Counted from the stretch's first letter, positions 18,820 through 43,230 are shown. The stretch is DNA of 43,684 nt from Candidatus Saccharimonadota bacterium (GCA_034520885.1 JAXHNE010000001.1:1-43684); one strand, 5' to 3'. The notes: generated by a model not told the origin, from the sequence alone. Numbers and translations are program-made.

Positions 18820-18920
18820 AAGAGCTAGAAGCCAAAAGCTTAAAGCTTAGAGAAGAGCGGATAAGTGCTTACGGCTCTCAGCTTACGGCTGTCAGCTTGA
18901 GCGAAAGGAGTGAGCGATGA
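18816..18920 (+). other. Heptamer-hairpin spacer / coupled mini-ORF (34 aa, [34 protein letters not shown])
   Basis: ATGA overlap with the rpoB stop and with the rpoC start. Arms of period 7 built on AGCY and RGCT. Confidence 0.75.
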
Positions 18921-21900
18921 GGCGATACACATCAGGAACCGATATTGCGATGTTCGATGCCGTGCGACTGGCAGTGGCAAGTGCCGAAGACATTATGGAC
19001 TGGAGCCACGGCGAGGTCACCAAACCGGAAACCATTAACTACCGGACGCAAAAACCCGAACGCGACGGACTTTTCTGTGAACGCATTTTCGGGCCGGTCA
19101 AAGACATTAACCCGCATGATGCCAAGTACAAGGGCGTTCGTTCCCGCGAAGCCGCGGTGGACAAAAACGGCGAAATCGTTACCAAGGCCATTGTGCGGCG
19201 CGAACGCATGGGGCACATTCAGCTGGCCGCTCCGGTAGCGCATATTTGGTTTTTGCGTGGCACGCCGAGTGCCATTGGCTTGCTTTTGGGCATGACCGTT
19301 AAGAACTTGGAGCGCGTGGCGTACTTTGCCAGCTATATCGTCAAAAGCGTTGACGAAGAAAAGCGCGACCAACTATTCGCGGACAAGGAAGCGGAGTTTA
19401 CGGCGGCCAAAGAGGCCATCAAAGCCCGCTATGAAAAAGAGGCCAATTCGCCGGACGGCGAAGAAAATGCCAACGTTAAGGCGCTGGCCGAAATGCAAAG
19501 CAAAGAGCTGGACGAGCTCAACAAAGAGTTCGAACAGCTCAAGAACCAGTTCGACAAACTAAAACCGTGCGCTTTGATTAGCGAGAGCGATTATCGGGAG
19601 CTGCCCGACAACTTGGCCGAGTTAATAGAAGTCGGCATGGGCGGCGCGGCTTTGAAAGATTTGTTGGATGAGGTCAATCTGGAAGACGTGATTGCCAAAC
19701 TTAATGCCGAAGCCGAAGAAACCAAAGGGCAACGGCGCAAAAAGATTATGAAACGTTTGCGTTTGCTGGAGAACATGCACAAAGCCGGCATTCAACCCAG
19801 TAGCATGTGCGTATCCGCTTTGCCTGTAATCCCGCCGGATCTGCGACCCATGGTGCAATTGACCGGCGGTCGGTTCGCTACCAGCGATATGAACGATTTG
19901 TATCGCCGGGTGATCAACCGTAACAATCGCTTAAAGAAGTTGATTGACCTGAACGCTCCGGAAGTGATTCGCCGCAACGAACAACGCATGTTGCAAGAGG
20001 CGGTGGACGCTTTGATCGATAACAACAGTGCCCGCAGCGGGCGTGCCGTGGCCGCGACCGGACAACGACGGCGCCTGAAGAGCCTGAGCGACCTGCTGAA
20101 AGGCAAACAAGGACGATTCCGCCAGAACCTACTTGGAAAGCGCGTGGACTACTCCGGTCGTTCGGTGATCGTTGCCGGGCCGGAATTGGCAATCGATGAA
20201 TGCGGTATTCCCAAGATGATGGCCCTGGAATTGTTTAAGCCGTTCGTGATCGGTCGTTTGATCGCCAACGAACAGGCGCACAACATTCGCAGCGCGACGC
20301 GCATGATCGAGCTCGGGGAAACCGCCGTATGGGACGCGTTGGACGAAGTCATCAAAGGCAAATACGTGCTACTTAACCGGGCACCGACGCTGCACCGCTT
20401 GGGTATCCTTGCCTTCCAACCGAAGTTGATCGAAGGTAAGGCCATTCAGCTTCACCCGCTGGTCTGTAAAGGCTTTAACGCCGACTTTGACGGCGACCAA
20501 ATGGCCGTGCACTTGCCGCTTTCCGATGAAGCGCAAGCCGAAGCCCGGGAAATCATGGCCGCCAACAAGAACTTGCTGAAACCCGCTGACGGATCACCAA
20601 CGCTGCATATCGAACAAGATATCGTACTGGGTTGTTACTACTTAACGTACGACCGTAAGCAAACTGGCAAAGTAACCCACTACGCCGGGCTGGACGAAGC
20701 GGTTATGGCTCACGATAATGGCGCCATTACCCTGCAATCACGTATCGTGATCGTGTTCAGGGGTGAACGCCGCGAAACGACGCTCGGCCGCGTGCTATTC
20801 AACGAAATATTCCCCGACGACTTCCCGTTCCAGGACGAGCCGATGACCAAGAAGAAGCTTTCCAACGTCATGGCCTTGGTGTATCAAAAGTACGGACAAG
20901 AAGTGACCGCCAGAATTGCCGACGACCTCAAGGACGTCGGGTTCTTTTACGCCACCAAGTCCGGACTCTCCATGGGTATGGACGACTTTAGGGATATCGA
21001 AGGCCTGCAAGGGATCCTGGACAAAGGTGAGGAAAACGTCGGTGAAATTAGCGAGCAATACGAACAAGGCTTCATTACCGACGAAGAACGTCACCGCTTG
21101 ATCGTGGACGCCTGGCGCAAAGTGGACAACGAAGTTCAAGACGTCTTGTCCGATCAGTTTTCCAAGGAAGACAGCGCTATGTCCACCGCCGTGGTCTCCG
21201 GTGCCCGTGGTAATATCGGCCAGGTAAAAACCGCCGTGGGAATGTTCGGCCCCGTAGCCGACGCTACCGGCAAAACTATTGAGTTGCCGATTAAGTCCAA
21301 CTACAAGAAGGGCTTTAGCGCGCTGGAATACTTTACCGCCACGCGCGGCGCGCGTAAGGGCATGATTGACACTGCCCTGAAAACCGCCGACTCCGGGTAT
21401 TTGACCCGCCGGTTAGTGGACGTGTCGCAAGACGTGTTTACCATTGATGACGGCTCCGAAGATCCCGGGTTCCCGATTCACCGCAGCGAATCCGAGGATA
21501 TTGGCGTGCCGCTGTCCATGCGAATTTCCGGACGGTTCGCCGCCGAAGACGTAAAAGGCCACGTAAAGAAGGGCGAACTGATTACCGCCGACATCGCGGA
21601 CGCGATAGAAGCCGATGACAAGGTCGACGTGGTGCGCATCATGAGCGTACTGAGTTGCACCGACGTTCGCGGCGTATCGCGCAAATCCTACGGACTGGAT
21701 CCGGCAACCGGGGAACTGGTGGCCAACGCGCACCCCATTGGCGTTATCGCCGCGCAATCCATCGGTGAGCCGGGTACGCAGTTGACGCTCCGCACCTTCC
21801 ACTCCGGTGGTGTGGCCGGTGATGACATCACCACCGGTTTGCCGCGTGTCGAAGAGCTTTTCGAAGTACGCACGCCGAAAGGACAAGCCTACCTGTCAGA

Positions 21901-23307: not shown

Positions 23308-23460
23308 ATGGATAAAGAACAGTTTTACCCGAGCACTCAACGCCCCTGGGAAGAAGTGAATCAAAAACCCTTTCCAAACAATGGTGAAATCGAAGACGAC
23401 CCTAAGGTATTAGAAGCCTTTTACCGAGAGCAACAAGGAGACCAGACAGATGAGCAATGA
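23308..23460 (+). CDS. Orphan 50-aa ORF between rpsL and rpsG
   Basis: Translated by hand as MDKEQFYPSTQRPWEE...GDQTDEQ*; starts 5 nt after the rpsL stop. Confidence 0.55.
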   Translation: MDKEQFYPSTQRPWEEVNQKPFPNNGEIEDDPKVLEAFYREQQGDQTDEQ

Positions 23461-23527
23461 GCAAAGAGCAAAGAGCAATGAGCTTCGTGCGTTTTTCACG
23501 ATTCAGCGACTAAAAGGAGCACTGTAA
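23450..23527 (+). other. Heptamer spacer / coupled mini-ORF (25 aa, MSNEQRAKSNELRAFFTIQRLKGAL)
   Basis: GAGCAA(T/A) x4, CAGCGACTAAAAGGAG end block, TAATG overlap with rpsG. Confidence 0.75.
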
Positions 23528-24007: not shown

Positions 24008-24283
24008 ATGAGTGTCCATAAAAGCGCTGAAAGGTATCTTAAATCACTGGATAGGTTTGACGCTGCAACCGAAAAATACGAACACTCAAGTGAATTGGCT
24101 GAACAAGGTCGTTTGTTAAACAAGCTAGGCGTACTTGGGAGATTCGCGACACTCCAAATTGCGGCTGTGCGTTTGCAGGCTGCTGAGGAAGGTTTTGCTA
24201 TGAGCGTAGAAGGCTTATCAGTTGCACAGCAAGTAGATGCGTTTTTGTATGAAGATCAAGCAAAAGAAATACTGGAGACATAA
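24008..24283 (+). CDS. Orphan hypothetical protein between rpsG and fusA
   Basis: 91-aa ORF starting 1 nt after the rpsG stop. Confidence 0.6.
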   Translation: MSVHKSAERYLKSLDRFDAATEKYEHSSELAEQGRLLNKLGVLGRFATLQIAAVRLQAAEEGFAMSVEGLSVAQQVDAFLYEDQAKEILET

Positions 24284-24286
24284 ATA

Positions 24287-24364
24287 ATGGCAGGAAAGAA
24301 ATATCCAGTCAAAGAAAAACCAAATTGCATCCATCCGCAAAACCCTTCGGAGCTTTCAATATGA
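24287..24364 (+). other. 25-aa mini-ORF starting with a duplicate of the fusA 5' end (MAGKKYP)
   Basis: 23-nt exact repeat, 24285-24307 = 24805-24827; its stop overlaps the next ATG. Confidence 0.75.
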
Positions 24365-24684
24365 ATACCAAGCGGCTACCGGAATTGTCAGAGGAAGCGA
24401 AAGGGTTTGTCGCCGATCGAGTGGATGAAGTGCGTAAAGACGTGTTATCGGAAGCTGACCCACGACAAATTCTCATTACGGGTGAAGAGGTTATGATCGA
24501 TGCATTGCGTCGACGGCCAAAAATGAGAGACGTACAAACCGCACCGGACTCATTCCACGACGGTATCCAAAGACTTGTCACTGTAGCCCAGCCTGAGGCG
24601 GCCTTTCAACTGGTAGGTGAAGCGGTTGAAATATCGAGAATCGTAACTCAGCAAGATAAAGCATTTGAAATAAAGGAAGTTTAA
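24361..24684 (+). CDS. Orphan hypothetical protein (107 aa)
   Basis: ATG 24361 in an ATGA overlap, within ORF 24325..24684. Confidence 0.6.
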   Translation: MNTKRLPELSEEAKGFVADRVDEVRKDVLSEADPRQILITGEEVMIDALRRRPKMRDVQTAPDSFHDGIQRLVTVAQPEAAFQLVGEAVEISRIVTQQDKAFEIKEV

Positions 24685-24807
24685 ATGGTAAATAGAGAGA
24701 ATACCCGCGCTAATGCACGAAACCATCACAATGAGTTGGCCATTGGGAATTTAATGAAAATTGCAAATTGTAAATTGAAAATTGGAGCGACCGGAAGGAG
24801 CGACTAA
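24685..24807 (+). other. Heptamer spacer / coupled mini-ORF (40 aa)
   Basis: GnAAATT x4, GCGACCGGAAGGAG end block, TAATG overlap with fusA. Confidence 0.7.
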
Positions 24808-26891
24808 TGGCAGGAAAGAAATATCCACTAGGAAAAATTAGAAACATCGGGATTATCGCGCATATTGACGCAGGTAAAACCACCGTGACGGAAGGTATTT
24901 TGTACCGCACCGGTATTAAGCACAAGGTCGGGGCCGTGCACGAAGGCGAAACCACGACCGACTGGATGACACAGGAACGCGAGCGCGGCATCACCATCGT
25001 ATCCGCCGCCGTGACCTGTTACTGGAAAGACCACCAGGTCAACATTATTGATACTCCCGGACACATCGACTTTACCGTGGAGGTAGAGCGTTCACTTCGT
25101 GTGCTGGACGGCGCCGTGGTGGTGTTCGATGGCAAGATGGGCGTGGAAAGCCAGTCCGAAACCGTCTGGCGCCAGGCCGATAAATACAACGTGCCGCGTA
25201 TTTGCTTTATCAACAAGATCAACCAAACCGGCGGCGATTTTTACAAGTCACTGGAATCCATCCATAAACGCCTGTCTACCCGTGCTTTCCCGATTCACCT
25301 GCCAATCGGGTTCGAGCAAGGAGTTAACGGCGTGGTGGACTTAATCTCCATGAAAGCCTACACCTATAACGAATTTTTGGACAAAAACTTGACCGAAACC
25401 GAAGTTCCCGAGGACATGCAAGACAAGGTCAAAAAATACCGTTCGCTTTTGATCGAAAACGCCGTAGCGGAAGACGAAGAGTACCTGGAGAAGTTCCTGG
25501 AAGTCGGCGAAGAAGGCCTGAGCGAAGAAGACATCCGCCACGCGGTACGCCAAGCGACGCTGACCGGTAAATTTTTCCCGGTTAGCGGCGGAGACGGCCG
25601 CGGCGTTATCGTGGAAAAAGTTTTGGACATGGTGAACGGCCTGCTACCAAGTCCGATTGACCGCGGTGCTACCTGGGGCAAGCATCCCAAGACGGAAGAA
25701 GATATGTCCCGCGAACCGAGCGAAGACGGCCCTATGGCCGGATTGGCGTTTAAGATTACTTCCGACCCGTACGTTGGAAAATTGGCGTACTTCCGCGTCT
25801 ACTCCGGCGTATTGAAAGCCGGATCGTACGTGATGAATACTTCCACCGGCGATAAAGAACGCGTGGGACGTATCGTGCGTATGCAAGCCGACAAGCGCGA
25901 GGAAGTCGACCAAGTCGGCGCCGGCGACATTGCCGCGATCGTGGGGCTAAAATCCACCACCACCGGCGATACACTGTGCGATCAAAACGACCAGATCGTG
26001 CTGGAAAACATCACCTTCCCCGAACCGCCCGTTAGCATCGCCATTGAACCCAAGACCAAAGCCGACCAAGAAAAGATGAGCCAGGCCTTGCAGCGATTAG
26101 CGGAAGAAGATCCGACCTTTAAGGTGCAGGTGGATGACGAAACCGGCCAAACCATCATTAGTGGCATGGGCGAGCTTCACCTGGAGATTTTGGTAGACCG
26201 CATGAAGCTGGAATTCAAAGTGGAAGCCAACATCGGTGCGCCACAAGTGGCTTACCGTGAAACCATCCGCCGTGACGGCGTAGAAGCCCAAGGGAAGTTC
26301 ATTCGACAATCCGGAGGCCGCGGACAATACGGTGACGTTTGGCTACGCTTGAGCCAAAACGAGTCCGGCGCGGGCTTTGAGTTCATCAACTCCATTAAGG
26401 GAGGCGTGGTGCCGCAGGAATACATCAAACCGGTCCAACAAGGTATCGAACAAGCCATGAGCAACGGTGTCGTGGCCGGATACCCGGTCGTGGACGTCAA
26501 AGCCGAACTGTATGACGGAAGTTACCACGACGTTGACTCCAGTGAAATGGCGTTCTCTGCCGCCGGCTCCATCGCATTTAAAGAAGGCATGAAAAAGGCC
26601 AAGCCAACGCTTTTGGAACCCATCATGAAAGTCGTGGTGGTCACCCCGGAAGAGTTCATGGGCGACGTGATCGGCGACTTGAATTCCAAGCGCGGACGCG
26701 TGGAATCCATGGAAGACCTCACCCCCGGCGTGAAGGAAATTACCGGATTCGTACCCCTTGGCGAAATGTTCGGCTATACGACGAATCTACGATCCACGAC
26801 CCAAGGCCGGGCCAGCTCCAGCATGGAACTAGATCACTACGACGACGTCCCCGGCAACGTCGCCGAAGCCATTGCCGCCAAGACCGAATAA
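24807..26891 (+). CDS. fusA: Elongation factor G
   Basis: AHIDAGKTT, RGITI, DTPGH, GMGELHL, QSGGRGQYG; 694 aa. Confidence 0.99.
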   Translation: MAGKKYPLGKIRNIGIIAHIDAGKTTVTEGILYRTGIKHKVGAVHEGETTTDWMTQERERGITIVSAAVTCYWKDHQVNIIDTPGHIDFTVEVERSLRVLDGAVVVFDGKMGVESQSETVWRQADKYNVPRICFINKINQTGGDFYKSLESIHKRLSTRAFPIHLPIGFEQGVNGVVDLISMKAYTYNEFLDKNLTETEVPEDMQDKVKKYRSLLIENAVAEDEEYLEKFLEVGEEGLSEEDIRHAVRQATLTGKFFPVSGGDGRGVIVEKVLDMVNGLLPSPIDRGATWGKHPKTEEDMSREPSEDGPMAGLAFKITSDPYVGKLAYFRVYSGVLKAGSYVMNTSTGDKERVGRIVRMQADKREEVDQVGAGDIAAIVGLKSTTTGDTLCDQNDQIVLENITFPEPPVSIAIEPKTKADQEKMSQALQRLAEEDPTFKVQVDDETGQTIISGMGELHLEILVDRMKLEFKVEANIGAPQVAYRETIRRDGVEAQGKFIRQSGGRGQYGDVWLRLSQNESGAGFEFINSIKGGVVPQEYIKPVQQGIEQAMSNGVVAGYPVVDVKAELYDGSYHDVDSSEMAFSAAGSIAFKEGMKKAKPTLLEPIMKVVVVTPEEFMGDVIGDLNSKRGRVESMEDLTPGVKEITGFVPLGEMFGYTTNLRSTTQGRASSSMELDHYDDVPGNVAEAIAAKTE

Positions 26892-26906: not shown

Positions 26907-27131
26907 ATGGAACTAAATCAAATACCGCGCGGCGAGTATGACCCAAGGGAGATGACTACGCACGAAGCTTCCGTGTTGGTGCAGCTGGGAAGGCGTATTG
27001 TGCGCATGGTTAGAGAGCCTTTTAGTGATCTGAAAGCTATTTTAGAGATAGCCGACCACACTGACACGGCCCAGGAGTACCCGGCACCCGAAGACGAGTA
27101 TCTAACTGGTGTACGGTCGATGAAAGCTTGA
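26907..27131 (+). CDS. Orphan hypothetical protein
   Basis: 74-aa ORF with TATAGT 6 nt upstream of ATG. Confidence 0.55.
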   Translation: MELNQIPRGEYDPREMTTHEASVLVQLGRRIVRMVREPFSDLKAILEIADHTDTAQEYPAPEDEYLTGVRSMKA

Positions 27132-27300: not shown

Positions 27301-28119
27301 GTGCTAGAAAGAACCACAACTGAAATTCCAGGGTTGGGATGGACCGAAAAGCTTCACCCGAAGTTTGCGGAGAAGTCTCCCGGTCAAGCCATGCATGGAG
27401 CGGCTCGCAGAATTGTAAGTATTGGCGACCCGAGGCGGCGCGCACTGTTTCAACTCGAAAAAGACGAAGCTGAGTTACGGGGCTACTTTGCCAAAGTGCT
27501 CGAAGAGGTTGCGGAAGGTGGCGACACTATGATGCAGATCGGTGCTCACGACGGAAGTTTTGACGATCCGTTTAGCGCGCTCGTGCCTTCGTTCAAAAGG
27601 GCGGTGCTGGTTGAGCCGCAGGCTGAGCAGTTCAAGAAATTACAGGAACGTTACAAAGACGTTTCGAGCGTTATTCTGCGCAGGGAGGCAGTCGCGGCCA
27701 CCAGCGGTTCTATTGTGCTGCACCGTGCCGCCATTGACTCGGCTGCAGAGTTCGGGAGCGCGATTGCCGCTACGGACCCCGAACAAGTTCAAAGCGAAAT
27801 TAAAAGATGCCTTGGTTATCGAGCGGTTCGCAAAGTAGTGTTAGAAAAAGAAGAGGTGCCGGCAACAACCATGGCGGCCTTATTAGCCGACACTATGCCG
27901 GATGGAGCGAGCTTGACTATGCTCGCGAGTGATACCGAAGGTTCCGACGCGCTTGTGGTTCGCGGAGCGGTTGGCGAGCACGGCCTACGGCCACCCGTGA
28001 TCCAGTATGAACACCTACACGTTGATCAAACTACGAGCCGGGAGCTTACGGGGGAGCTTTCGGCAATCGGGTACCAGCTTACAAAAACGCATAAAGATAC
28101 GCTTGCGGTTCTCGGCTAA
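27301..28119 (+). CDS. FkbM-family SAM-dependent methyltransferase
   Basis: QIGAHDG (motif I variant), VLVEP, SDTEGSD, IQYE. Confidence 0.8.
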   Translation: MLERTTTEIPGLGWTEKLHPKFAEKSPGQAMHGAARRIVSIGDPRRRALFQLEKDEAELRGYFAKVLEEVAEGGDTMMQIGAHDGSFDDPFSALVPSFKRAVLVEPQAEQFKKLQERYKDVSSVILRREAVAATSGSIVLHRAAIDSAAEFGSAIAATDPEQVQSEIKRCLGYRAVRKVVLEKEEVPATTMAALLADTMPDGASLTMLASDTEGSDALVVRGAVGEHGLRPPVIQYEHLHVDQTTSRELTGELSAIGYQLTKTHKDTLAVLG

Positions 28120-28265: not shown

Positions 28266-29450
28266 ATGGCAGATTTTGATCGATCAAAGCCACACATTAA
28301 CGTCGGTACCATGGGTCACGTTGACCACGGTAAAACGACCCTGACGGCGGCAATCACGACCGTACTTGCCAAAAAAGTACCAACCGAAGTCAATAAGCAA
28401 ATCGCTTACGACGAGATTGACAAAGCGCCGGAAGAAAAAACCCGCGGGATTACCATTTCCACGTCGCACCAAGAGTACGAAAGCGAAAACCGGCACTACG
28501 CTCACGTGGATATGCCCGGGCACGCGGACTACGTAAAAAATATGATTACCGGCGCCGCGCAGGTTGACGGAGCCATTTTGGTAGTTTCCGCCGCTGACGG
28601 CCCCATGCCGCAAACTCGCGAACATGTGCTTTTGGCTCGCCAAGTCGGCGTACCGAAAATCGTGGTTTTCATGAATAAGATGGACCTCGCGGACCCGGAA
28701 CTGGTTGAGTTGGTAGAAATGGACATCCGTGAACTGCTAACCAATAATGACTTTGACGGTGACAACGCGCCGATCATCAAGGGCTCCGCCACCAAAGCTT
28801 TGGAGGGCTCCGAAGAAGACGAAAACGCCGTTATGGACTTGGTAAAAGCCATGGACGACTACATTGAAGAACCCAAGCGCGACCTGGACAAAAGCTTCCT
28901 TATGCCAGTTGAGGACGTGTTCTCTATCAAGGGTCGTGGAACGGTTGCAACCGGCCGTATCGAACAAGGCGTTGCCAAAGTCAACGACGAAGTTGAGATT
29001 GTCGGCGTTAAGGACACGCAAAAGTCGGTGATTACCGGAATCGAAATGTTCAAGAAATCACTTGACCAAGGGCAAGCCGGAGACAACGCCGGTATCCTGC
29101 TCCGCGGTATTGAGCGTGATGACATTGAGCGTGGACAGGTGCTTTGCAAGCCCGGTTCAATCACTCCGCACACAGAGTTCGAAGCCGAAGTGTATATCCT
29201 TAAGAAAGAAGAAGGCGGACGACACACGCCATTCTTCAAGGGCTACAAACCGCAGTTCTACTTCCGAACCACGGACGTGACCGGCGAGGTTGAATTGCCG
29301 GCCGACAAAGAAATGGTTATGCCCGGTGATACGGTAACTTTCAACGTGAAGCTATTGCAGCCGATCGCTATGGACCAAGGGCTTCGCTTCGCTATCCGCG
29401 AAGGCGGCCGAACAGTTGGAGCAGGAGTTGTAACCAAGATCTCCAAGTAA
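28266..29450 (+). CDS. tuf: Elongation factor Tu
   Basis: [28 protein letters not shown]. Confidence 0.99.
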
Positions 29451-29474
29451 GCGACACGCGACCACAAAAGAATT

Positions 29475-29505
29475 AAGGAGTGAGTTAATCACTCCTTTTT
29501 CTTTT
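29475..29505 (+). terminator. Intrinsic terminator after tuf
   Basis: AAGGAGTGA-gttaa-TCACTCCTT followed by a T tract. Confidence 0.85.
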
Positions 29506-29535
29506 GTTTTTGGCGCATCTTGAAAGTTTTCTCTG

Positions 29536-32068: not shown

Positions 32069-32310
32069 CTAAATCGGTATAACAGAAAAAATCTGTGAAA
32101 ATTGGTGTATTTCGGAAGGTCCGTTTCTGGAATAAAACAGAGACGGAAACCACCAAAACACCAATATTTTTGTGCCAAACCATGACGCAAAATAGCAGAG
32201 ATTAAATAGAGGTCCCAAGAGGAAACTATGAATCCCGTCAGAAATCTACGAGTCGAACACATTGCACGGATTTTAGGCGGGGCGGCCAAAGGAAAGGTAT
32301 TTCAAACGGG

Positions 32311-32946: not shown

Positions 32947-33053
32947 AGTACGAAGCACGAAATATGAAACAAGCACGAAATATGAAAAATGAAACTTTCA
33001 GGTTTCGGTCTTCAGATTTCGGATTTCAAGCGACTGGAAAGGAGCACGCGTAA
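32943..33053 (+). other. Heptamer-hairpin spacer / coupled mini-ORF (36 aa, MKYEARNMKQ...GKEHA)
   Basis: ATGA overlap with rplC and TAATG overlap with rplD; GAAR repeats against YTTC repeats. Confidence 0.8.
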
Positions 33054-35094: not shown

Positions 35095-35340
35095 ATGGCT
35101 GTAAAAGAAAGATTAGCCGAAACTATGGATGTTGCCAAAAATCTACTCGATCATTTGGCGGATGAATCCCCACATTTTGAAGGTGGGTTAACCGGCGGAA
35201 GACAAGCAGCTCGAGAAATCGAAGCGTTTTCGCCAGCTGAAGCAATGGACGCATATTTGACATCTGATGATCCGTCAGATTTCAGACTGGGGTTTGCATT
35301 GGGGTTTTATGTGGAAAAGTATGAGACAGGTACATTATGA
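35095..35340 (+). CDS. Orphan hypothetical protein between rplB and rpsS
   Basis: 81-aa ORF starting 2 nt after the rplB stop. Confidence 0.6.
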   Translation: MAVKERLAETMDVAKNLLDHLADESPHFEGGLTGGRQAAREIEAFSPAEAMDAYLTSDDPSDFRLGFALGFYVEKYETGTL

Positions 35341-35561
35341 GTAGATTATTCGAAATAGACCAAATTGCTTTCGAAAAAGGATATGCAGATGTGCACCAAG
35401 CCGTTAGTGAGGGTGTCCATATTTCTGAGGTCGAGAACTCACTAGGCCTGGTTGGTTGTGGAATCAGTGGATTTGCCTGTGTATGCAATCAATCGCGTGT
35501 GGGCGAAGAGATCGATATCTATGATTACGTTGATGGAATAAAGAGGCTGAAGCACAAGTGA
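35337..35561 (+). CDS. Orphan hypothetical protein
   Basis: 74-aa ORF, ATGA-coupled to the previous one. Confidence 0.55.
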   Translation: MSRLFEIDQIAFEKGYADVHQAVSEGVHISEVENSLGLVGCGISGFACVCNQSRVGEEIDIYDYVDGIKRLKHK

Positions 35562-35576: not shown

Positions 35577-35842
35577 ATGAGATCGCTGAAAAGGGACCGT
35601 TTATTGATCCGAAGTTGGAGAAGAAAGTTCAGGCTTTGGGTAAAGAAGACCGCGACCATCATTAAGACATGGGCGCGCAGTAGTACGATTTCCCGGATTT
35701 CGTTGGCCGCACCATTGCCGTGCATAACGGTAAAGTACATGTTCCCGTCCACGTGACGGAAAACATGGTCGGCCACAAGCTGGGTGAGTTCGCCCCGACC
35801 CGTAAGTTCCGTAAACACGGTGGAAAGTTAGCGAAGGCGTAA
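35577..35842 (+). CDS. rpsS: 30S ribosomal protein S19 (frameshifted)
   Basis: Across frames: [36 protein letters not shown]. Confidence 0.95.
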
Positions 35843-35847: not shown

Positions 35848-36267
35848 ATGGCAGTTAAAGCAATCGCAAAATCAGTTCGTATGAGCCCCCGCAAAGTCGG
35901 TGTAGTGGCCAGCTTGGTGCGTGGCCGCAGCGTGGCCGACGCGATTACCATTCTGGAGCACACGCCGCGCCGCAGCGCTTTGCCGGTTAAAAAAGTCATT
36001 GAATCCGCTCGCGCCAACGCCGATTATAACCACGGCTATAAACCCGAAACCTTGAAAATTACCGAAATTACCGTCAATGGCGGTCCGAGCTACAAGCGCT
36101 TTAAGCCGATTGCCCGCGGTGGAGCCCACCCCTACCAACTGCGTACCTCACACATTTCCGTTACCGTGGACGGCGAAAAGCGAGCAGCTAAGAGCAATAA
36201 ACCGAAAGCCGAAAGCTCAAAGCTAAAAGCTGGAAGTCAAAAGACGCCAGCAAAGGAGAAGAAGTAA
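35848..36267 (+). CDS. rplV: 50S ribosomal protein L22 with a repeat-derived C-terminal tail
   Basis: RMSPRK, SARANA, RTSHISV. Confidence 0.98.
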   Translation: MAVKAIAKSVRMSPRKVGVVASLVRGRSVADAITILEHTPRRSALPVKKVIESARANADYNHGYKPETLKITEITVNGGPSYKRFKPIARGGAHPYQLRTSHISVTVDGEKRAAKSNKPKAESSKLKAGSQKTPAKEKK

Positions 36268-36518
36268 TGGAAACTAAGAACTGGAAGCAGGCAGGAGACA
36301 GATATTTCGATATGTCGAAACTATTAGTTGATAGTGACGTGCAGCCAGGCTCCTCCCGCTTGGATGCAGTACGCGGAGACAGCGAAGCACGGACCGAGCC
36401 GTATGAATCATACGGTGAAGGGAGTACTGGAGATGACGACAAAGTAATGCGCCAAGAGACTTGGCGAGGTTCTGAGCTTGGCTCAGAAACTGGCCAAGGC
36501 GGCGGAGGAGACTGGTAA
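36267..36518 (+). other. Palindromic-element ORF (83 aa), TAATG-coupled at both ends
   Basis: Shares CCGCTTGGATGCAG and CGAGCCGTA..TACGGTGAAG with 38440-38733. Confidence 0.7.
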
Positions 36519-37150
36519 TGGGACAGAAAGTTAATCCAATCAGCATGCGCCTACAAGTCAATAAGGATTGGCGCAGCAAATGGTTCGCCAATAAGCGTGA
36601 TTACGCGGAATACCTGACGCAAGACCTCAAGGTGCGCCGTTATATCAAGAATAAACTCGGATCACGAGCCGCGATTAACAATATTGATATTGAGCGCTCA
36701 CCGAACTTGGTCAACGTAACCATATCTACCGCGAAAGCCGGTGTGGTCATTGGCCGTGGTGGCGCGGGCGTACAAGAGCTGAAAGACGCCATTGAAAAAA
36801 TTTACGGCGTGCAAGTGCGCGTAAATATCGAGGAAGTCAAAAAGCCCGAACTGTACGCACAGTTAGTCGCCGAAAACATCGCTCATCAAATTGAGCGGCG
36901 TATCTCTTGGCGCCGAGCCATTAAATCGACCGCGGCCGCGACCATGCGAGCCGGGGCGAAAGGTATTCGTATTGAAGTATCCGGCCGATTGGGCGGCGCG
37001 GAGATGTCCCGACGTGAAAAAGAAGTCCAAGGAAGCGTGCCGCTCCATACGGTACGCGCCAATATTGATTACCACGCGGCCCGAGCGCAATATCCCGGAG
37101 CCGGTGTTGTCGGCGTAAAAGTGTGGATTTATAAAGGGGAGAATCAATGA
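36518..37150 (+). CDS. rpsC: 30S ribosomal protein S3
   Basis: MGQKVNP, SGRLGGAEMSR, GVKVWIY. Confidence 0.99.
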   Translation: MGQKVNPISMRLQVNKDWRSKWFANKRDYAEYLTQDLKVRRYIKNKLGSRAAINNIDIERSPNLVNVTISTAKAGVVIGRGGAGVQELKDAIEKIYGVQVRVNIEEVKKPELYAQLVAENIAHQIERRISWRRAIKSTAAATMRAGAKGIRIEVSGRLGGAEMSRREKEVQGSVPLHTVRANIDYHAARAQYPGAGVVGVKVWIYKGENQ

Positions 37151-37311
37151 TGTTTCGTTTCACTCAACATCAGAGCACGGAGCACGGAGCAAGGAGCAAG
37201 GAATTTTTCACTGCTCATCAAGCGTTATCACTGCTCAGTAATCAGTGTTCAGTACACGGATTACAGACAACAGACAACGGATCACGACAACTGGAGGTTG
37301 TACTATGTTGA
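37147..37311 (+). other. Heptamer-hairpin spacer / coupled mini-ORF (54 aa, MMFRFTQHQ...)
   Basis: ATGA overlap with rpsC; stop overlaps the rplP start; GATGTT/AACATC hairpin and GAGCAnG repeats. Confidence 0.8.
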
Positions 37312-37718
37312 TGCCGAAGAAAACCAAGTACCGAAAAGTCCGCAAAGGCGTTATCAAGGGCAAGGCGACCAAAGGCCATTACATTGCTCACGGTGACTAT
37401 GCTTTGCAGAGCCTGGAAATGGATCGCGTGACGTCACGGCAAATTGAGTCGGCGCGTCAGGCCATGACCCGCTACATTAAGCGTGGCGGTAAAATTTGGA
37501 TTCGTATCTTTCCGCACACACCGGTAAGCAAGAAGCCCCAGGACGTAAAAATGGGGAGCGGTAAAGGCAACCCCGAGTATTTCGTGGCCAAGGTTCGTCC
37601 CGGCACCATTTTGTTCGAGATGCAAGGTGTTCCGGAGGCGACGGCACGCGAGGCCATGCGACTCGCCGGGAACAAGTTACCGGTAAAGACCCGCTTTATC
37701 GTGAAGGAGAATGCATGA
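37305..37718 (+). CDS. rplP: 50S ribosomal protein L16
   Basis: [34 protein letters not shown] before ATG 37305. Confidence 0.99.
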
Positions 37719-37840
37719 TGTTTCGTTACGTTCAACATCGGAATATGGAATATGAAATATGGAATATATCCGTATTTTATAAGACGTTACTTTCCATTTT
37801 CCGCTTTTCACCTTCCGTAACGACGAAAGGAGTTGCTTGA
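37715..37840 (+). other. Heptamer-hairpin spacer / coupled mini-ORF (41 aa, MMFRYVQHR...)
   Basis: ATGA and TGATG overlaps; GGAATAT repeats against TTCC repeats; CGACGAAAGGAG end block. Confidence 0.8.
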
Positions 37841-38040
37841 TGAAAGTCGTAGAAATTCGAAAACTATCAACCGATGGGCTTACCAAACAAAGCACCGCTT
37901 TGCGCGAAGAAATTGCAGAGCTAAAACGTCGCCTGCACTCCGGTGAGGTGCAAAACGTACGCGCTATTCGAGCCAAGCGCAAAGATCTGGCACGCGTACT
38001 TACCGTACTTGGCGAACAACTCAGAGAGGAGGCAGTATGA
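37840..38040 (+). CDS. rpmC: 50S ribosomal protein L29
   Basis: EIRKLS...RKDLARVLTV; position between rplP and rpsQ. Confidence 0.93.
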   Translation: MKVVEIRKLSTDGLTKQSTALREEIAELKRRLHSGEVQNVRAIRAKRKDLARVLTVLGEQLREEAV

Positions 38041-38156
38041 TGTTTCGTTACACGCAACATTGGAGCAAGGAGCAAGGAGCAAGGAGCAAAGAATTTTTCA
38101 CCGCTCACTACTCAGGACTCACTGCTCAGCGACTGAAAGGAGCATATCATGGGTAA
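38037..38156 (+). other. Heptamer-hairpin spacer / coupled mini-ORF (39 aa, MMFRYTQHW...QRLKGAYHG)
   Basis: ATGA overlap; stop overlaps the rpsQ start; GGAGCAA x4 against RCTCA repeats. Confidence 0.8.
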
Positions 38157-38733: not shown

Positions 38734-39098
38734 TTCAGCAAGAATCACGCTTAACCGTCTGCGACAACAGTGGCGCCCGCGAAATACTATGTATTCGCGT
38801 GTTGGGCGGAACTCGCCGCCGGTACGCTAAAGTCGGTGACGTTATTACGGCGACCGTAAAAGAAGCTACTCCCGGCGGTACCGTCAAGAAGAAGAGCGTC
38901 GTAAAAGCCGTGGTCGTTCGCTCCCGCGATGGCATTCGCCGCAAAGACGGATCGACCATCAAGTTTGACGACAACGCCGCGGTAATCATTGCTGATGATA
39001 AAAACCCCAAGGCGACTCGTATTTTCGGTCCCGTTCCGCGCGAATTGCGCGATATGGGATACGCGAAAATTATTAGCCTTGCACCGGAGGTTTTGTAA
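38730..39098 (+). CDS. rplN: 50S ribosomal protein L14
   Basis: [27 protein letters not shown]. Confidence 0.99.
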
Positions 39099-39436
39099 TG
39101 AGTGTTGGAGAAGGACTGGAGCGGACACCAATGATGCGAGAACCCAGAGCTGTTAAATCTAAAATTAATTCCATTCAACACAACAGTGCATTGAACTCAC
39201 TACATGACTGGTTAAGAATGCAAGGCCTAGAAGGTGACGATATAAAGGTGGCATTTCATGGTTTTAGACGAGGACTTCGATACTATGACGGGCAAGAAGC
39301 TGAGGTTGATGAAACTTTTCGAGGGTCTCTCGTTCTAGACACGGAAAAAACTGAAGACTTTTGGAAATACAATGGAGTCGGTGAGTTAGTTTCAAGGATA
39401 CTTCGTGATACACACCAAGGAGCTGAAGATGAGTAA
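39098..39436 (+). CDS. Orphan hypothetical protein between rplN and rplX
   Basis: 112-aa ORF overlapping both neighbours. Confidence 0.65.
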   Translation: MSVGEGLERTPMMREPRAVKSKINSIQHNSALNSLHDWLRMQGLEGDDIKVAFHGFRRGLRYYDGQEAEVDETFRGSLVLDTEKTEDFWKYNGVGELVSRILRDTHQGAEDE

Positions 39437-39758
39437 AATATTTAAGATCAAGCTGAAGAAGGGCGACAATGTGATGGTGCGCGCCGGAAAGCACAAAGGC
39501 AAGACCGGTAAGGTCGCTGAAGTTCATCCAAAGTTGAATGCCGTGACAGTTGAAGGTATTAATATTGTCAAGAAGCATCAAAAGCCGAATCGCGCACATC
39601 CCCAAGGTGGAATTTTAGAGATCATCAAGCCAATTGCGGTAAGCAAAGTAGCAATTGTTGAGCCAACCAGCAAAAAGCCGAGCAAAATTGGTTTTAAGGT
39701 TGATGAAGAAGGTAATAAAGTTCGTATTTATAAGCGAACCGGAAAGGAGATCAGATGA
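39429..39758 (+). CDS. rplX: 50S ribosomal protein L24
   Basis: KOW motif KKGDNVMVRAGKHKGKTG, VEGIN; AAGGAG SD before ATG 39429. Confidence 0.98.
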   Translation: MSKIFKIKLKKGDNVMVRAGKHKGKTGKVAEVHPKLNAVTVEGINIVKKHQKPNRAHPQGGILEIIKPIAVSKVAIVEPTSKKPSKIGFKVDEEGNKVRIYKRTGKEIR

Positions 39759-39877
39759 TGTTTCGTTTCACTCAACATCAGAGCAAAGCGCAAAGAGCAA
39801 TGAGCAATGAAGCCGCTCAGAACTTCTCTGCCCCCCGATCTCCGATCTTTAAACTTCGACTGAAAGGAGTTCTGTAA
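39755..39877 (+). other. Heptamer spacer / coupled mini-ORF (40 aa, MMFRFTQHQ...RLKGVL)
   Basis: ATGA and TAATG overlaps; first 31 nt identical to the 37147 element. Confidence 0.8.
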
Positions 39878-40542
39878 TGGCGACGAAAGCGGAAAGCCCA
39901 AAGCCGAAAGCCGAAAGCAAGACAGCCCAAAGCTCAAAGCCGAAAGCTGAAAGCAAAGTGGCAAAGAAACCAGCGAATAAAGCCGGTGCTTATTCTCCAC
40001 GCTTAAAACGGTTGTACGAGAGCACTTACAAATCCGAGCTTCGCAAAGAACTTGAATTGAAGAACACTAACCAAGTACCCAAACTGGAGAAGGTCGTTCT
40101 TAACGTTGGCCTCGGGAAATCCAAGGACGACAAGCGTATGATGGAAGTCGCCGAAAATACCCTGACCAAAATCACCGGCCAAAAACCGGTGGATACCATG
40201 GCCAAGAAATCCATTGCCGGCTTTAAGCTGCGCGAAGGCAATAAGATCGGCTTGAAGGTAACGTTGCGTGATCAACGCATGTACGAATTCATGGATCGAT
40301 TGATCAACATTGTGCTCCCGCGCCTGCGTGACTTTCACGGCGTGAGTAGTAAGTCATTCGACGCCAACGGGAATTACAGCATTGGGCTGGTTGATCAGTC
40401 CGTGTTTCCGGAACTCAGCTTTGACGAAACCACGCACGCGCACGGTATGCAAGCCGTATTCGTGGTGAAGAGTGAAGACAAAGCCCACGCTCGTGCTTTG
40501 CTGGAAAAGTTCGGCATGCCGTTCGAAAAGGAAGAAGCATGA
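39877..40542 (+). CDS. rplE: 50S ribosomal protein L5 with a repeat-derived N-terminal extension
   Basis: PKLEKVVLNVGLG, ITGQKP, FKLREG, LPRLRDF. Confidence 0.99.
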   Translation: MATKAESPKPKAESKTAQSSKPKAESKVAKKPANKAGAYSPRLKRLYESTYKSELRKELELKNTNQVPKLEKVVLNVGLGKSKDDKRMMEVAENTLTKITGQKPVDTMAKKSIAGFKLREGNKIGLKVTLRDQRMYEFMDRLINIVLPRLRDFHGVSSKSFDANGNYSIGLVDQSVFPELSFDETTHAHGMQAVFVVKSEDKAHARALLEKFGMPFEKEEA

Positions 40543-40670
40543 AATACGAAGTACGAAATAAGAAACAAGCACGAAGCATGAAACCGAGAAGTTTCGGTCT
40601 TCAAATTTCAAATTTGTTTCAGTTTTCAAATTTCAGTCTTCAAAATTTAATTAATAAGAAGGAGTCGTAA
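40539..40670 (+). other. Heptamer-hairpin spacer / coupled mini-ORF (43 aa, MKYEVRNKKQ...)
   Basis: ATGA overlap with rplE; stop 1 nt before rpsN; paralog of 32943-33053. Confidence 0.8.
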
Positions 40671-40946: not shown

Positions 40947-41060
40947 ATGAAGATGTTTTACTACGTTCAACACCGGAGCAAGGAGCAAGAAACAAGAAAC
41001 AAGGACTTCACTGCTCACTGCTCACTGCTCACTGCTCAGCGACTGAAAGGAGCGCAATAA
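40947..41060 (+). other. Heptamer-hairpin spacer / coupled mini-ORF (37 aa, MKMFYYVQH...QRLKGAQ)
   Basis: SD overlapping the rpsN stop; GRARCAA x4 against CTGCTCA x4; TAATG overlap with rpsH. Confidence 0.8.
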
Positions 41061-41461: not shown

Positions 41462-41565
41462 AGGAGTTAAAGGTTGAAAGTATAAAGTTCATAAAGTAGA
41501 GGAAAAGCAAAACCTTTTCACTTTCTACATTGCAACTTTAAACTATCTGACCGAAAGGAAGATTT
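41462..41565 (+). repeat. Heptamer-hairpin spacer without an intact mini-ORF
   Basis: AAAGT-type repeats against ACTTT-type repeats; GACCGAAAGGAAG end block. Confidence 0.65.
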
Positions 41566-42465: not shown

Positions 42466-43115
42466 TGGCGACGACAAATCCACAATCCAAAGAGCGCCCG
42501 GCCGCTGAAGAAAAGCAGTTCGAAGAGCGCGTATTAAATATCGACCGCGTAGCTCGTGTCGTCAAAGGCGGACGGCGTTTCCGTTTCCGTGCCCTCGTAG
42601 TAGTCGGTGATCGCAAAGGAAAAGTCGGCGTGGGTATCGCGAAAGGCGCGGACGTTACTTCGGCTATTAGTAAAGCTACCGATGTTGCCAAGAAAAGCAT
42701 GATAACCGTTGCGTTGGCCAAGAATACCATTCCGCATGAAACGGAGACCAAGCTTAGCGGTGCGCGCATTCGCCTGATGCCCGCCAGCCCGGGTACCGGT
42801 TTGATCGCCGGCGGTGCGGTGCGTACCATTTTGGAAGTTGCCGGTGTAAAAAACGCGCTTTCTAAGTCACTCGGTTCGAGCAACAAGGCGAACATTGCCT
42901 ACGCTACAATCAAAGGCCTGGAGAGTATCCAAAGTGAAGACCAGTGGTTAACCACTAAGGTAGCCGGAAGCTCAAAGCTCAAAGCCGAAAGCAAGACGAC
43001 CGGAAGCTCAAAACCGAAGGCCGAAGGCAAGACGGCTCAAAGCCCAAAGCCGAAGGCTGAGAAGAAAACCACCGCTAAGAAGTCCGAGAAGAAGACGGAG
43101 AAAAAGAATGCGTAG
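42465..43115 (+). CDS. rpsE: 30S ribosomal protein S5 with a repeat-derived C-terminal tail
   Basis: RVARVVKGGRRFRF, PGTGLIAGG, KSLGSSN. Confidence 0.99.
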   Translation: MATTNPQSKERPAAEEKQFEERVLNIDRVARVVKGGRRFRFRALVVVGDRKGKVGVGIAKGADVTSAISKATDVAKKSMITVALAKNTIPHETETKLSGARIRLMPASPGTGLIAGGAVRTILEVAGVKNALSKSLGSSNKANIAYATIKGLESIQSEDQWLTTKVAGSSKLKAESKTTGSSKPKAEGKTAQSPKPKAEKKTTAKKSEKKTEKKNA

Positions 43116-43230
43116 CATTTCAAGTAACAAGCAATACGTAACAAGTAATATGGGAAATGTATTAAACCGAAACCCACATAGCCTTTTACTTTCTACATTT
43201 TACCTTTTGCTGAAACCGGAGGTTTCTTAA
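43108..43230 (+). other. Heptamer spacer / coupled mini-ORF (40 aa) at the usual rpmD position
   Basis: Start overlaps the rpsE end; TAA directly abuts the rplO ATG; AGTAA-type and TAC(T/A/C)TT-type repeats. Confidence 0.7.

Follow-up and report, generated by a model that had tools for sequence, protein, structure and literature searches.

Introduction

Three kinds of described sequence come closest to the small elements treated here, which lie between rpoB and rplO in a Candidatus Saccharimonadota bacterium (GCA_034520885.1). The stretch of DNA analyzed (JAXHNE010000001.1:1-43684; 43,684 nucleotides), hereafter the window, contains 13 of them, built from tandem heptamers that as a rule form two inverted arms. 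The intervening sequences (IVSs) of 23S rRNA genes are bordered by complementary sequences and excised by RNase III, and the IVS of Coxiella carries an S23p open reading frame (ORF) (PMC4990558). Mycobacterial interspersed repetitive units (MIRUs) are found inserted at start codons and contain an ORF coupled to the neighboring genes (Supply et al. 1997, via PMC12548453 and PMC3184786). Heptanucleotide simple sequence repeats (SSRs) are over-represented in many bacteria, examples being the short tandemly repeated repetitive (STRR) sequences of the cyanobacterium Calothrix and the word GGGAATC of Xanthomonas, which forms 70-75 convergent pairs, mostly between co-directional genes (PMC4692102). 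In Beggiatoaceae the word TAACTGA stands directly upstream of start codons, those of ribosomal-protein operons included (PMC4679880).

We arrive at the view, with a probability of roughly two in three (0.68), that the 13 features are small inserted elements of the IVS type which carry no gene and are tolerated through translational bridging of the MIRU kind. An earlier, sequence-only reading of the window had taken the hairpins, whose 7-nt period is kept while the heptamer changes from junction to junction, for a shape-specific RNA or single-stranded DNA signal. It overlooked three features, namely the empty junctions in relatives, the spanning mini-ORFs and the homology to PF05635 cassettes and 23S inserts. 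Heptanucleotide repeats have been known since 1990 and 23S IVS proteins since about 1993; we know of no accepted function for either.

Empty Junctions in Related Genomes

The window is contig C1 of a genome of 988 kb (G000; 11 contigs, about 49% G+C). Three congeners (G001-G003), which share 70-77% nucleotide identity with G000, were used for comparison at ten junctions: rpoB-rpoC, rplC-rplD, rpsC-rplP, rplP-rpmC, rpmC-rpsQ, rplX-rplE, rplE-rpsN, rpsN-rpsH, rpsH-rplF and rpsL-rpsG. Each of these carries a heptamer element of 97-154 nt in G000, whereas the congeners have tight or overlapping junctions; rpoB-rpoC, for example, is TAATG in G001 and G003. The sole exception is rpsL-rpsG, which is tight in G003 and contains an unrelated spacer of 197 nt in G001. 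Thus, judged by the empty junctions of the congeners, the window elements are shown to be insertions. The insertion points, as located from filled and empty sites, lie at or just before a stop/start overlap of the TAATG type. In the case of rplE-rpsN the element was inserted into the last codons of rplE, and its mini-ORF ends on the native C-terminus NKKES followed by the stop codon.

The S10 region was also collected from 29 relatives using RplP as probe; one of these loci, L016, comes from an unpublished genome (G036) and contributes to the count of 29 only. A spacer of more than 90 nt at rpsC-rplP, rplP-rpmC or rpmC-rpsQ was present in only three of the 29 loci (L008, L009 and L029). The spacers of L029 (from G030) are heptamer elements with the same 3' end module as in G000. 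The rpmC gene was missed by tblastn in L007, L013 and L016; in L007 and L016, the two that were inspected, an interval of 214-246 nt contains a frame of the size of L29.

Spanning Reading Frames

In 11 of the 13 window spacers a mini-ORF of 25-54 amino acids (aa) spans the element and is tied to both neighboring genes. These mini-ORFs start on or next to the upstream stop codon, seven of the eleven with ATGA, and end at the downstream start codon: five do so with TAATG, two with TGATG and one with ATGA, and the other three stop no more than 8 nt from it. Over the window spacers 12 of 39 sense frames are free of stop codons, compared with 2 of 39 antisense frames and an expectation of 3.4 from shuffled sequences. 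For 27 related elements from 12 other genomes, open frames were counted over the 110 nt before the end of the 3' module. Exactly one sense frame was open in 20 of them, while the antisense strand gave 5 of 27. Most of these 20 ORFs encode 37-43 aa and end between -1 and +8 nt from the next start codon; five of them end 16-32 nt beyond it or begin far upstream (up to 99 aa). The arrangement known from MIRUs, an intercistronic insert within an operon whose ORF overlaps both neighbors, was found for 11 of the 13 window elements and for 20 of the 27 related ones. As far as frame counts can tell, the spanning ORFs are shown to be conserved, and we infer that they are translated.

One alternative is that the mini-ORFs encode functional small proteins and that the nucleotide repeats are of secondary importance. 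In its favor are the conservation of the frames and the recurrence of N-termini (MMFRFTQH..., MKYEARN...). However, the peptides are wholly different wherever the heptamer word differs, it is the nucleotide modules that are conserved, and the copy at C10 22087 has the same 5' arm in a different frame. Furthermore, none of the four mini-ORFs tested matched a Pfam family. We find this alternative scarcely credible. Pfam likewise assigned no family to nine inserted ORFs, searched as ten coordinate ranges (24325-24681 and 24361-24681 counting as one ORF), the only match among them being a sub-threshold hit to acVLRF1 at 24361-24681.

Families, End Modules, and Distribution

Five window elements (37147, 37715, 38037, 39755 and, roughly, 40947) and a copy before rpsI on contig C3 constitute family A. 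Its members have a common 5' module, ATGATGTTTCGTTTCACTCAACATC, and several copies end in the 3' module GCGACTGAAAGGAGC, which is a Shine-Dalgarno site for the next gene. Arm words differ among copies that have the same end modules (37715 versus 37147 and the C3 copy), which points to arm exchange or rapid turnover.

The 14-nt 3' module was found in 13 of 401 genomes of the order, distributed patchily over at least 8 families; a reversed control pattern occurred in a single genome among the 401. The module was not found in the congeners G001-G003. One genome contains 11 copies, 9 of them within 12 kb. Heptamer words are diverse among the 27 elements outside G000. At the ORF start, 13 of 20 elements form a perfect 5' mini-hairpin with at least 5 bp, compared with 688 of 3000 random windows (23%). 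Seven of these stems have 8 bp, and three variants differ by paired base changes (TAAAATGC/GCATTTTA, TAAAATAC/GTATTTTA and TAAATTGC/GCAATTTA). The rpsC-rplP junction is occupied by a module-bearing element in four families, represented by G000, G030, G147 and G252.

Relationship to 23S rRNA Inserts and PF05635 Cassettes

The single 23S rRNA gene of G000 (C4:47126-51089; L084 1501-5464) has a length of 3964 nt, compared with the 2925 positions of the Rfam model. It contains three heptamer hairpins without ORFs, located by partial flanking matches at model positions of approximately 385, 575-594 and 1212-1229. The latter two are presumably compatible with the classical helix-25 and helix-45 IVS sites, if our helix numbering is correct. 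Insert 2 matched both arms and the apex of the rplE-rpsN element with a score of 81 (shuffle maximum 34) and those of the rplC-rplD element with a score of 54 (shuffle maximum 25). Inserts 1 and 3 matched the rpsH-rplF element with scores of 37 and 40, respectively (shuffle maximum 26). The three hairpins make up about 340 nt of the 23S excess of about 1040 nt; therefore, further insertions must be located downstream of model position 1725 or so.

The genome also encodes 10 proteins above the cut-off for PF05635 ("23S rRNA IVS protein", a four-helix bundle). All 10 genes are located behind another gene and have inverted heptamer arms on their flanks, with a different word in each case. Two window hairpins, at 32943 and 40539, form family B together with copies on contigs C3, C4, C9 and C10. 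Family B is homologous to the arms of the PF05635 cassette C5:31006-31302, the 5' and 3' flanks of which gave scores of 78 and 55 with the rplE-rpsN element (shuffle maxima 28 and 23). The ORF of this cassette begins with the translated 5' arm (MKTEARSTKHEIRN...) and has an ATGA start on the upstream stop codon, while a second small ORF runs over the 3' arm and ends on the GTG of the next gene. By their sequence, family B hairpins look like this cassette with the gene removed.

Further matches were observed. The 24755 array, in the 3' part of a larger insertion, gave a score of 56 with the 3' flank of cassette C5:32670 (shuffle maximum 28); the 107-aa ORF carried by this insertion (24361-24681) showed no similarity to the C5:32670 protein. 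The 5' half of the 43108 element matched the 5' flank of cassette C7:57426, start region included, with a score of 32 (shuffle maximum 26), and its 3' half did not rise above shuffled sequences in the comparison with that cassette. In general, 43108, 41462 and 37715 showed weaker similarity to cassettes, with scores of 22-32 compared with shuffle maxima of 24-27. No window element contains a PF05635 ORF according to Pfam. On these alignment scores, window elements are shown to be homologous to 23S inserts and to a PF05635 cassette.

A loose association with PF05635 was also visible across genomes. Outside G000, each of the 12 module-positive genomes has the family, as do 11 of 20 module-negative ones, with means of 4.75 and 0.95 matches, respectively; since these genomes are mutually related and not independent, the comparison overstates the significance. 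Such an association is what would be expected if the arrays were protein-binding lattices, in which the 4-5-nt core is recognized, the 2-3 variable bases act as spacers and the inverted arms bring the ends together. The candidate protein would be the PF05635 four-helix bundle, acting in trans on the copies without a gene. The constancy of the core among units whose other positions vary (xTAGAxx in the C10 cassette, AGGTT-NN in the rpsJ leader) fits this proposal, as do the arms at all 10 PF05635 genes and a complementarity that is limited to the core word and independent of register (see below). Co-inheritance of gene and arms predicts the same association, however; arms also surround unrelated cargo (24361-24684), and family A has no cognate gene in G000. 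We regard the binding lattice as doubtful. It is compatible with gene-less insertions bridged by translation, to which it would supply the missing factor for mobility or maintenance.

Folding and Pairing of the Arms

The sequence-only reading had proposed that each spacer be folded. For this purpose the 13 spacers were compared with 200 dinucleotide shuffles each, and the outcome was divided. Six of them fold clearly, with 0-7 of the 200 shuffles reaching their energies: the rpsJ leader, which is the best (z = -4.69; 0/200), rpsC-rplP (-3.06), rplP-rpmC (-2.47), rpsH-rplF (-2.19), rplE-rpsN (-1.96) and rplC-rplD (-1.93). Three are marginal and are matched by 20-37 of 200 shuffles (rpsN-rpsH, z = -1.30; rpmC-rpsQ, -1.25; rpoB-rpoC, -0.8). 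The remaining four (rpsL-rpsG, 24685, rplX-rplE and rpsE-rplO) fold no better than shuffled sequences. Compared with the complementary borders that give an IVS its stem-loop, the stems in the window are bubbled and not near-perfect. In these folds the spacers of rpsL-rpsG, rplC-rplD, rpsN-rpsH and rpsH-rplF carry the coordinates 23440, 32940, 40942 and 41458, respectively.

The two arms of an element contain the same core word in inverted orientation, and pairing is stronger in cognate than in chimeric combinations of arms. For the 5' and 3' halves of the window elements, cognate pairing averaged -24.1 kcal/mol and chimeric pairing -16.9 kcal/mol (equalled by 1 of 20000 permutations), in a test biased by a split point that was optimized on the cognates. 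An unbiased test of the 27 related elements, in which the 3' arm was set to 30 nt and the 5' region to 100 nt throughout, yielded -19.3 kcal/mol for cognate and -15.3 kcal/mol for chimeric pairs (0 of 20000 permutations), and here the median rank of the cognate partner was only about 6 of 27. Eighteen arm pairs were then compared as ungapped arm versus reverse complement. For most pairs the identity stayed at 0.6-0.85 whichever in-phase offset was taken and was about 0.25 for offsets out of phase, and the mirror register was not outstanding; exceptions were the pairs of family B, the arms of which have a higher-order structure. Since the in-phase registers are equally identical, the complementarity resides in the word and is not pair-by-pair. 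Thus, the claimed complementarity of the arms holds for cognate as opposed to chimeric arms, in any in-phase register. Part of their apparent co-variation comes from the arrival of separate element families, which differ in their words, at different junctions.

A sense-strand advantage in folding was not found, neither for the 13 window spacers (7 sense versus 5 antisense; mean difference +1.75 kcal/mol, p = 0.73) nor for the 27 elements elsewhere (13 sense versus 14 antisense), and neither set contained a G·U or other sense-strand RNA signature. The autocorrelation of the paired state at lag 7 in the minimum free energy folds was weak, 0.04 compared with -0.05 in shuffled sequences. The fixed period-7 bubbles that had been claimed are therefore weak on average, and a precisely maintained geometry of this kind is not supported. 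With register-free arms, weak bubbles and no strand signature, a shape-specific signal kept by compensatory change finds no support either. The suggestion of a processing site or mobilization substrate pointed in the right direction insofar as the same families occur in the 23S rRNA gene. Overall, both the observation and the interpretation of the sequence-only reading hold in part.

Processing deserves consideration in its own right. The hairpins might be sites of RNA processing or stability that are useful to the host, at which RNase III or another double-strand-specific factor cuts the polycistronic mRNA; a cistron would thereby be released with its own Shine-Dalgarno leader, or the stem would shield the upstream segment from exonucleases, and stoichiometry would be tuned. 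IVS stems are RNase III substrates (PMC4990558). G000 encodes one RNase III, the same families are present in its 23S rRNA at two positions that we take to be compatible with classical IVS sites, and the 3' module places a Shine-Dalgarno site just outside the stem. On the other hand, the mRNA stems are weak and bubbled, four of 13 being no better than shuffles, and the sense strand folds no better than the antisense strand. Folding energies per nt lie between about -0.15 and -0.34 kcal/mol in the 13 operon copies, the average being near -0.23, and between about -0.31 and -0.33 kcal/mol in the three copies of the rRNA; numbers as small as 3 and 13 give no more than a hint that stems are weakened in translated copies. 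Moreover, the conserved mini-ORF would lose its stop codon if the hairpin were cut, and tight junctions suffice in close relatives. Consequently, we consider processing sites unlikely.

Genome-wide, period 7 dominates among the tandem repeats and accounts for 212 of 741 rows of the Tandem Repeats Finder (TRF) output. A strict scan found 51 arrays of period 7 compared with 0-13 for each other period from 4 to 12. After merging, about 226 period-7 arrays with dozens of different words were obtained, 155 of them outside long ORFs in a genome that a rough ORF call covers to about 82%. The complementarity of 183 arrays to their own 90-nt flanks did not differ on average from that to foreign flanks (p = 0.96), although 18.6% of them were clearly better with their own flank. 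Among adjacent arrays, 10 of 55 pairs of consensus words agreed in at least 5 of 7 positions, no clear enrichment over the null of 12.8%. The genome scan for inverted arms proposed earlier thus showed that arrays generally have no complementary partner within 90 nt.

This last result bears on another alternative, that the arrays are ordinary microsatellites generated by in-place polymerase slippage in existing spacers, with a complementarity that follows from base composition. Among long SSRs, those with heptanucleotide units form the most frequent class in many bacteria, and an origin by slippage has been suggested (PMC4679880, PMC4692102); most arrays of G000, as just described, have no better partner in their own than in foreign flanks. 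In the window, however, the spacers themselves are missing in relatives, non-repeat end modules are common to elements within and between genomes, cognate arms outpair chimeric arms, and homology that spans the two arms together with the apex links them to 23S inserts and cassette flanks. As the origin of the elements, slippage is largely refuted by the empty sites and the end modules held in common, and we rate it as very improbable. In stating that simple slippage would not make the arms co-vary, the sequence-only reading was right in essence: the elements are insertions with conserved end modules and an inverted core word in both arms.

Proposed Mechanism

According to the explanation we prefer, IVS-type insertions without a gene that are bridged by translation, the element class would be the same as that of the 23S IVSs of G000 and of the arms of its ten PF05635 cassettes. 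An element would land on a stop/start overlap in an essential operon, or immediately ahead of one, and would survive there by means of a compatibility kit. This kit would comprise a start codon by the upstream stop codon (ATGA in 7 of 11 window mini-ORFs), a single frame open through both heptamer arms and, in most cases, a Shine-Dalgarno module of its own (GCGACTGAAAGGAGC), placed a few nucleotides ahead of the downstream start at which the mini-ORF terminates. Ribosomes finishing the upstream gene would re-initiate on the mini-ORF, melt the weak bubbled hairpin by translating it and terminate on the start of the next gene, so that the coupling broken by the insertion would be restored as in mycobacterial MIRUs.

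The 7-nt "geometry" would result from the nature of both arms as tandem arrays of one core word in inverted orientation. Because such arms can pair in any in-phase register, gain or loss of copies would need no compensation; slippage in either arm would leave the hairpin intact, and therefore the period would persist without compensatory change. We infer that the elements are selfish or neutral and that their arms turn over by slippage and template switching. Template switching between the arms of quasi-palindromes is a known mechanism.

Several observations weigh against this explanation. There is no spanning ORF in two of the 13 window elements, the rpsJ leader and rpsH-rplF, nor in 7 of the 27 elements elsewhere; the rpsJ leader has none because it is a leader position with no upstream gene rather than a gene junction. 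A transposase for the heptamer elements was not identified in G000, and a consistent target duplication could not be defined from filled versus empty sites. Neither excised forms nor copy-number variants of the heptamers were found in contigs of the likely source sample, a salt-pan metagenome; these contigs simply break at heptamer arrays. Among public sequencing runs, no RNA run was listed for the region; the three DNA runs listed come from one salt-pan study, two of them covering the region wholly or in part and the third hardly at all. The PF05635 family is only loosely associated with the 3' module. For family A, to which 5 of the 13 window elements belong, G000 contains no relative that bears a gene, and the link of this family to PF05635 consists of shared architecture only. 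Finally, the recurrence of elements at rpsC-rplP could reflect host benefit or homing rather than tolerance.

A broader proposal would unite rRNA IVSs, PF05635 bundles and the STRR-like heptanucleotide repeats of many bacterial phyla in one, apparently undescribed, class of mobile elements. The arrays would be the register-free recognition lattice of the bundle protein, the most highly transcribed units, rRNA and translation operons, would be colonized, and gene-less copies in mRNA would be bridged by translation. We offer this tentatively, as something possible rather than probable.

Candidate Mobilizers

A Y1/RAYT (REP-associated tyrosine transposase) protein was tried as mobilizer of the heptamer elements and rejected, the single gene in G000 (C5:6533-6760) being flanked by an unrelated perfect palindrome. 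Genes of this kind are present in 11 of 12 module-positive and in 7 of 20 module-negative genomes, an enrichment that probably reflects generally repeat-rich genomes. The locus itself (C5, about 6000-7000) encodes a Y1/RAYT-like protein of 230 aa with an HUH motif and has copies of the palindrome (ACTGTACAAGGTTGAACCTTGTACAGT) on both sides. It represents a separate REP/RAYT-like system in a genome of the candidate phyla radiation (CPR); similar genes of about 210 aa reach up to 9 copies in relatives.

TnpB was not found in G000, which is 92.5% complete. A link to reverse transcriptase (RT) and diversity-generating retroelements (DGRs), considered for the Avd-like fold, was rejected as well, the sole RT being located far from any cassette. 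The RT gene (C9:88559-89839; L083 2559-3839) encodes 426 aa. Upstream of it are two direct repeats of 160 nt (L083 1984-2143 and 2368-2527) with 97% identity; their 5 differences are not adenine-specific, and thus there is no obvious pair of template and variable repeats. Integron attC sites were set aside on architecture alone, and no integrase search was run.

Individual Elements of the Window

TRF reported arrays of period 7 or 14 at all junctions named, beginning at 18835/18867, 23450, 24755, 30611/30648, 32939/32996, 37173/37227 and 37740 and, further downstream, at 38062/38104, 39780, 40541/40600/40617, 40975/41008 and 43121. The period-7 arrays and complementary cores of 4-5 nt described in the sequence-only reading were indeed present at each junction it named, and the 23450 and 24755 arrays proved single-armed as it had stated. 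All elements described in the following are on the + strand.

The rpoB-rpoC insert (18816-18920) has the arms AAAGCTT ×2 (18835-18849) and GCTTACGGCTCTCA ×2.3 (18867-18898); its mini-ORF of 34 aa runs from an ATGA on the rpoB stop to an ATGA on the rpoC start. The rpsL-rpsG insert (23450-23527) consists of the 5' arm ATGAGCA ×4.9 (23450-23483), a decayed 3' arm and the 3' module CAGCGACTAAAAGGAGC. Its mini-ORF ends with TAATG on the rpsG start, and an ORF of 50 aa (23308-23460) precedes the insert. Upstream of fusA, a mini-ORF at 24685-24807 contains the single array TGAAAAT ×4.3 (24755-24784). It forms the 3' end of an insertion of about 520 bp (24309-24806) with the 107-aa ORF, to which Pfam assigned no family. 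The first 21 nt of fusA (ATGGCAGGAAAGAAATATCCA) are duplicated at 24288-24308 and 24807-24827, and the copies bracket this insertion. The rpsJ leader hairpin (30611-30677) sets AGGTTGT/AGGTTAG ×4 against CTAAAAC/CTAACAC ×4.

The rplC-rplD insert (32943-33053), a member of family B, has arms of the type AAGCACGAAAT... and ...TTTCAGATTTCGG and the 3' module AAGCGACTGGAAAGGAGC; its mini-ORF MKYEARN... starts with ATGA and ends with TAATG. In family A, the rpsC-rplP insert (37147-37311) combines the common 5' module with GAGCAxG/CTGCTCA arms and a mini-ORF of 54 aa from ATGA to TGATG. The rplP-rpmC insert (37715-37840) has the same 5' module but GGAATAT/TTTCC arms, and its mini-ORF also runs from ATGA to TGATG. 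The arms of the rpmC-rpsQ insert (38037-38156) are GGAGCAA ×4 and CxxCTCA ×4, followed by the 3' module GCGACTGAAAGGAGC; the mini-ORF has an ATGA start and ends 8 nt within rpsQ. The rplX-rplE insert (39755-39877) has the family A 5' module, the 5' arm AGAGCAA ×4, a decayed 3' arm and the 3' module CGACTGAAAGGAG, with a mini-ORF from ATGA to TAATG.

The rplE-rpsN insert of family B (40539-40670) contains the mini-ORF MKYEVRN..., which has an ATGA start and the native RplE end described above. The rpsN-rpsH insert of family A (40947-41060) has GGAGCAA/GAAACAA and TCACTGC ×4.4 as arms and GCGACTGAAAGGAGC as 3' module; its mini-ORF uses the native Shine-Dalgarno site and start of rpsH and ends with TAATG. 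The rpsH-rplF hairpin (41462-41565) is built from AAAGT/ACTTT words. Finally, the rpsE-rplO insert (43108-43230) contains the words AAGTAAC... and ...TTTTAC and a mini-ORF that starts 8 nt before the rpsE stop and adjoins the rplO start.

Heptamer-like arrays were also observed within coding sequence, at 36202-36231, 39884-39954 and 42968-43057 (CCGAAAG, AAGCTCA and CGAAAGC). They correspond to extensions rich in K, A, E and S at the C-terminus of L22, the N-terminus of L5 and the C-terminus of S5. In relatives these termini are shorter or different from the heptamer-extended ones of G000.

Gene Order and Assembly

According to Pfam, the gene order from 16.9 kb is rpoB, rpoC, rpsL, rpsG, fusA, tuf, rpsJ, rplC, rplD and, farther on, rpsC, rplP, rpmC, rpsQ, rplN, rplX, rplE, rpsN, rpsH, rplF, rplR, rpsE and rplO. 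The gene names given in the earlier reading agree with these matches, and the last junction of the series is rpsE-rplO. No rpmD (L30) is present between these two genes (43116-43230), rplO being located directly 3' of rpsE; absence of rpmD from this interval is usual in CPR bacteria.

Small ORFs without a Pfam match lie between translation genes at 24008-24283, 26907-27131, 27301-28119, 30038-30328, 35095-35340, 35337-35561, 36267-36518 and 39098-39436, and several of these are linked in chains via ATGA overlaps. BLAST showed that the ORF at 39098-39436 is missing between rplN and rplX in the three congeners. Directly after rpsJ, a 60-nt unit is repeated 2.4 times (31056-31199), with a near-perfect hairpin (CCCCGTAGTAAAGCGAAGCTTTCACTACCGGGG) per unit. 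This is followed by about 1.1 kb with two minus-strand ORFs, 31279-31884 and 31909-32289, without Pfam match. Downstream of tuf a 172-bp unit occurs 2.0 times with 95% matches (29536-29886), and the contig depth over 29253-29919 was 5-10 times that of the neighboring regions in runs X1 and X3. Repeat and raised depth together suggest a multi-copy or widely shared element.

The assembly shows several irregularities. Positions 34357-43684 of C1 overlap 1-9328 of C3 over 9328 nt with at least one substitution; thus, this part of the operon is present twice in the assembly. The rpoB region (15187-18819) is not a single ORF. Its last ORF (16879-18819) covers Rpb2 domains 6-7 only, and the upstream pieces are in different frames. 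Between 33655 and 34663 the window disagrees with a short-read contig obtained independently from what is probably the source sample; there are 41 substitutions and 48 gap positions, mainly deletions of 1-2 nt. The rplB gene is split over frames, rpsS (about 35577-35756) looks frameshifted too, and a 1-nt difference at 38432 may be the cause of an "extended" rpsQ ORF of 194 aa. These discrepancies in rplB, in rpsS and at 38432 are probably an assembly or strain-mixing problem rather than biology.

Comparison with Known Systems

G000 offers three homologous settings of one kind of sequence: a PF05635 cassette between protein genes, hairpins in the 23S gene and operon hairpins at stop/start overlaps. 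They provide a concrete and testable link between the heptamer repeat class and the PF05635 family. An ultra-small genome with coupled operons has absorbed more than 12 insertions within 25 kb of its most essential genes. For annotation this means that such spacers yield spurious small ORFs, extended termini and assembly breaks and should not be taken for regulatory leaders. In the literature within our scope, which left out most subscription journals, no account came to light of operon-borne IVS-type elements with heptamer arms, of bridging ORFs in them or of a link between PF05635 and heptamers.

Repetitive extragenic palindromes (REPs), bacterial interspersed mosaic elements, REPINs with their RAYTs and MITEs (transposable elements of the miniature inverted-repeat type) resemble the window elements in being short intergenic repeats that are non-autonomous, form hairpins and increase in number within a genome. 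The heptamer elements differ from them in lacking a conserved palindrome, terminal inverted repeats of fixed sequence and a recognizable target duplication. The palindrome that defines REP and REPIN-RAYT systems flanks a RAYT gene; the palindrome at the sole Y1 gene of G000 is a different one. Of the hallmarks of MITEs, inverted arms are present, the filled and empty sites show no consistent duplication, and a cognate transposase was not identified.

Heptanucleotide SSRs have in common with the window elements the tandem 7-nt units, the mostly intergenic location, often between co-directional genes near start codons, the inverted pairs and a fast turnover of length and sequence between relatives. 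The arrays of G000 are likewise tandem heptanucleotides in mainly intergenic positions. In contrast to genomes dominated by one or a few words, dozens of words occur in the 1 Mb of G000, and its ten PF05635 cassettes use ten words. The consulted portions of PMC4692102 and PMC4679880 draw no connection to a spanning ORF, PF05635 or rRNA IVSs.

MIRUs are similar as small elements of about 40-150 nt at start codons in operons whose homologous sites are empty in relatives, and in an internal ORF that preserves coupling by overlapping the flanking gene at either end. They differ in consisting of direct tandem units that are used as variable number tandem repeats, whereas the window elements are inverted heptamer arrays. 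The tetranucleotide direct repeats reported for MIRUs in the sections consulted were not found at the window elements. MIRUs proper are a mycobacterial family of 40-100-bp direct repeats; the window elements belong to a Saccharibacteria host, hence to another phylum, and show no sequence relationship to them, a distinction drawn from architecture and host without sequence comparison.

The IVSs of Salmonella, Leptospira and Coxiella (PMC4990558) resemble the element class of the window in complementary arms, which form the stem-loop of an IVS and fold clearly in 6 of the 13 window elements, and in a small four-helix-bundle ORF as an optional content of the loop. Relatives of three window elements are located inside the 23S gene of G000 itself. 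The 13 window copies, however, are not inside a 23S gene; they lie in a leader or between protein-coding genes and thus in mRNA instead of rRNA. Their arms are tandem heptamers with periodic mismatches, compared with the near-perfect 28-bp stem of the Coxiella IVS (PMC4990558), and they possess a spanning, putatively translated frame and a Shine-Dalgarno module. What is new here is the homology, at the level of sequence, between the operon hairpins and the 23S inserts of the same genome. The elements are real, and they combine three known kinds of sequence: the IVS, the heptamer SSR and bridging of the MIRU type.

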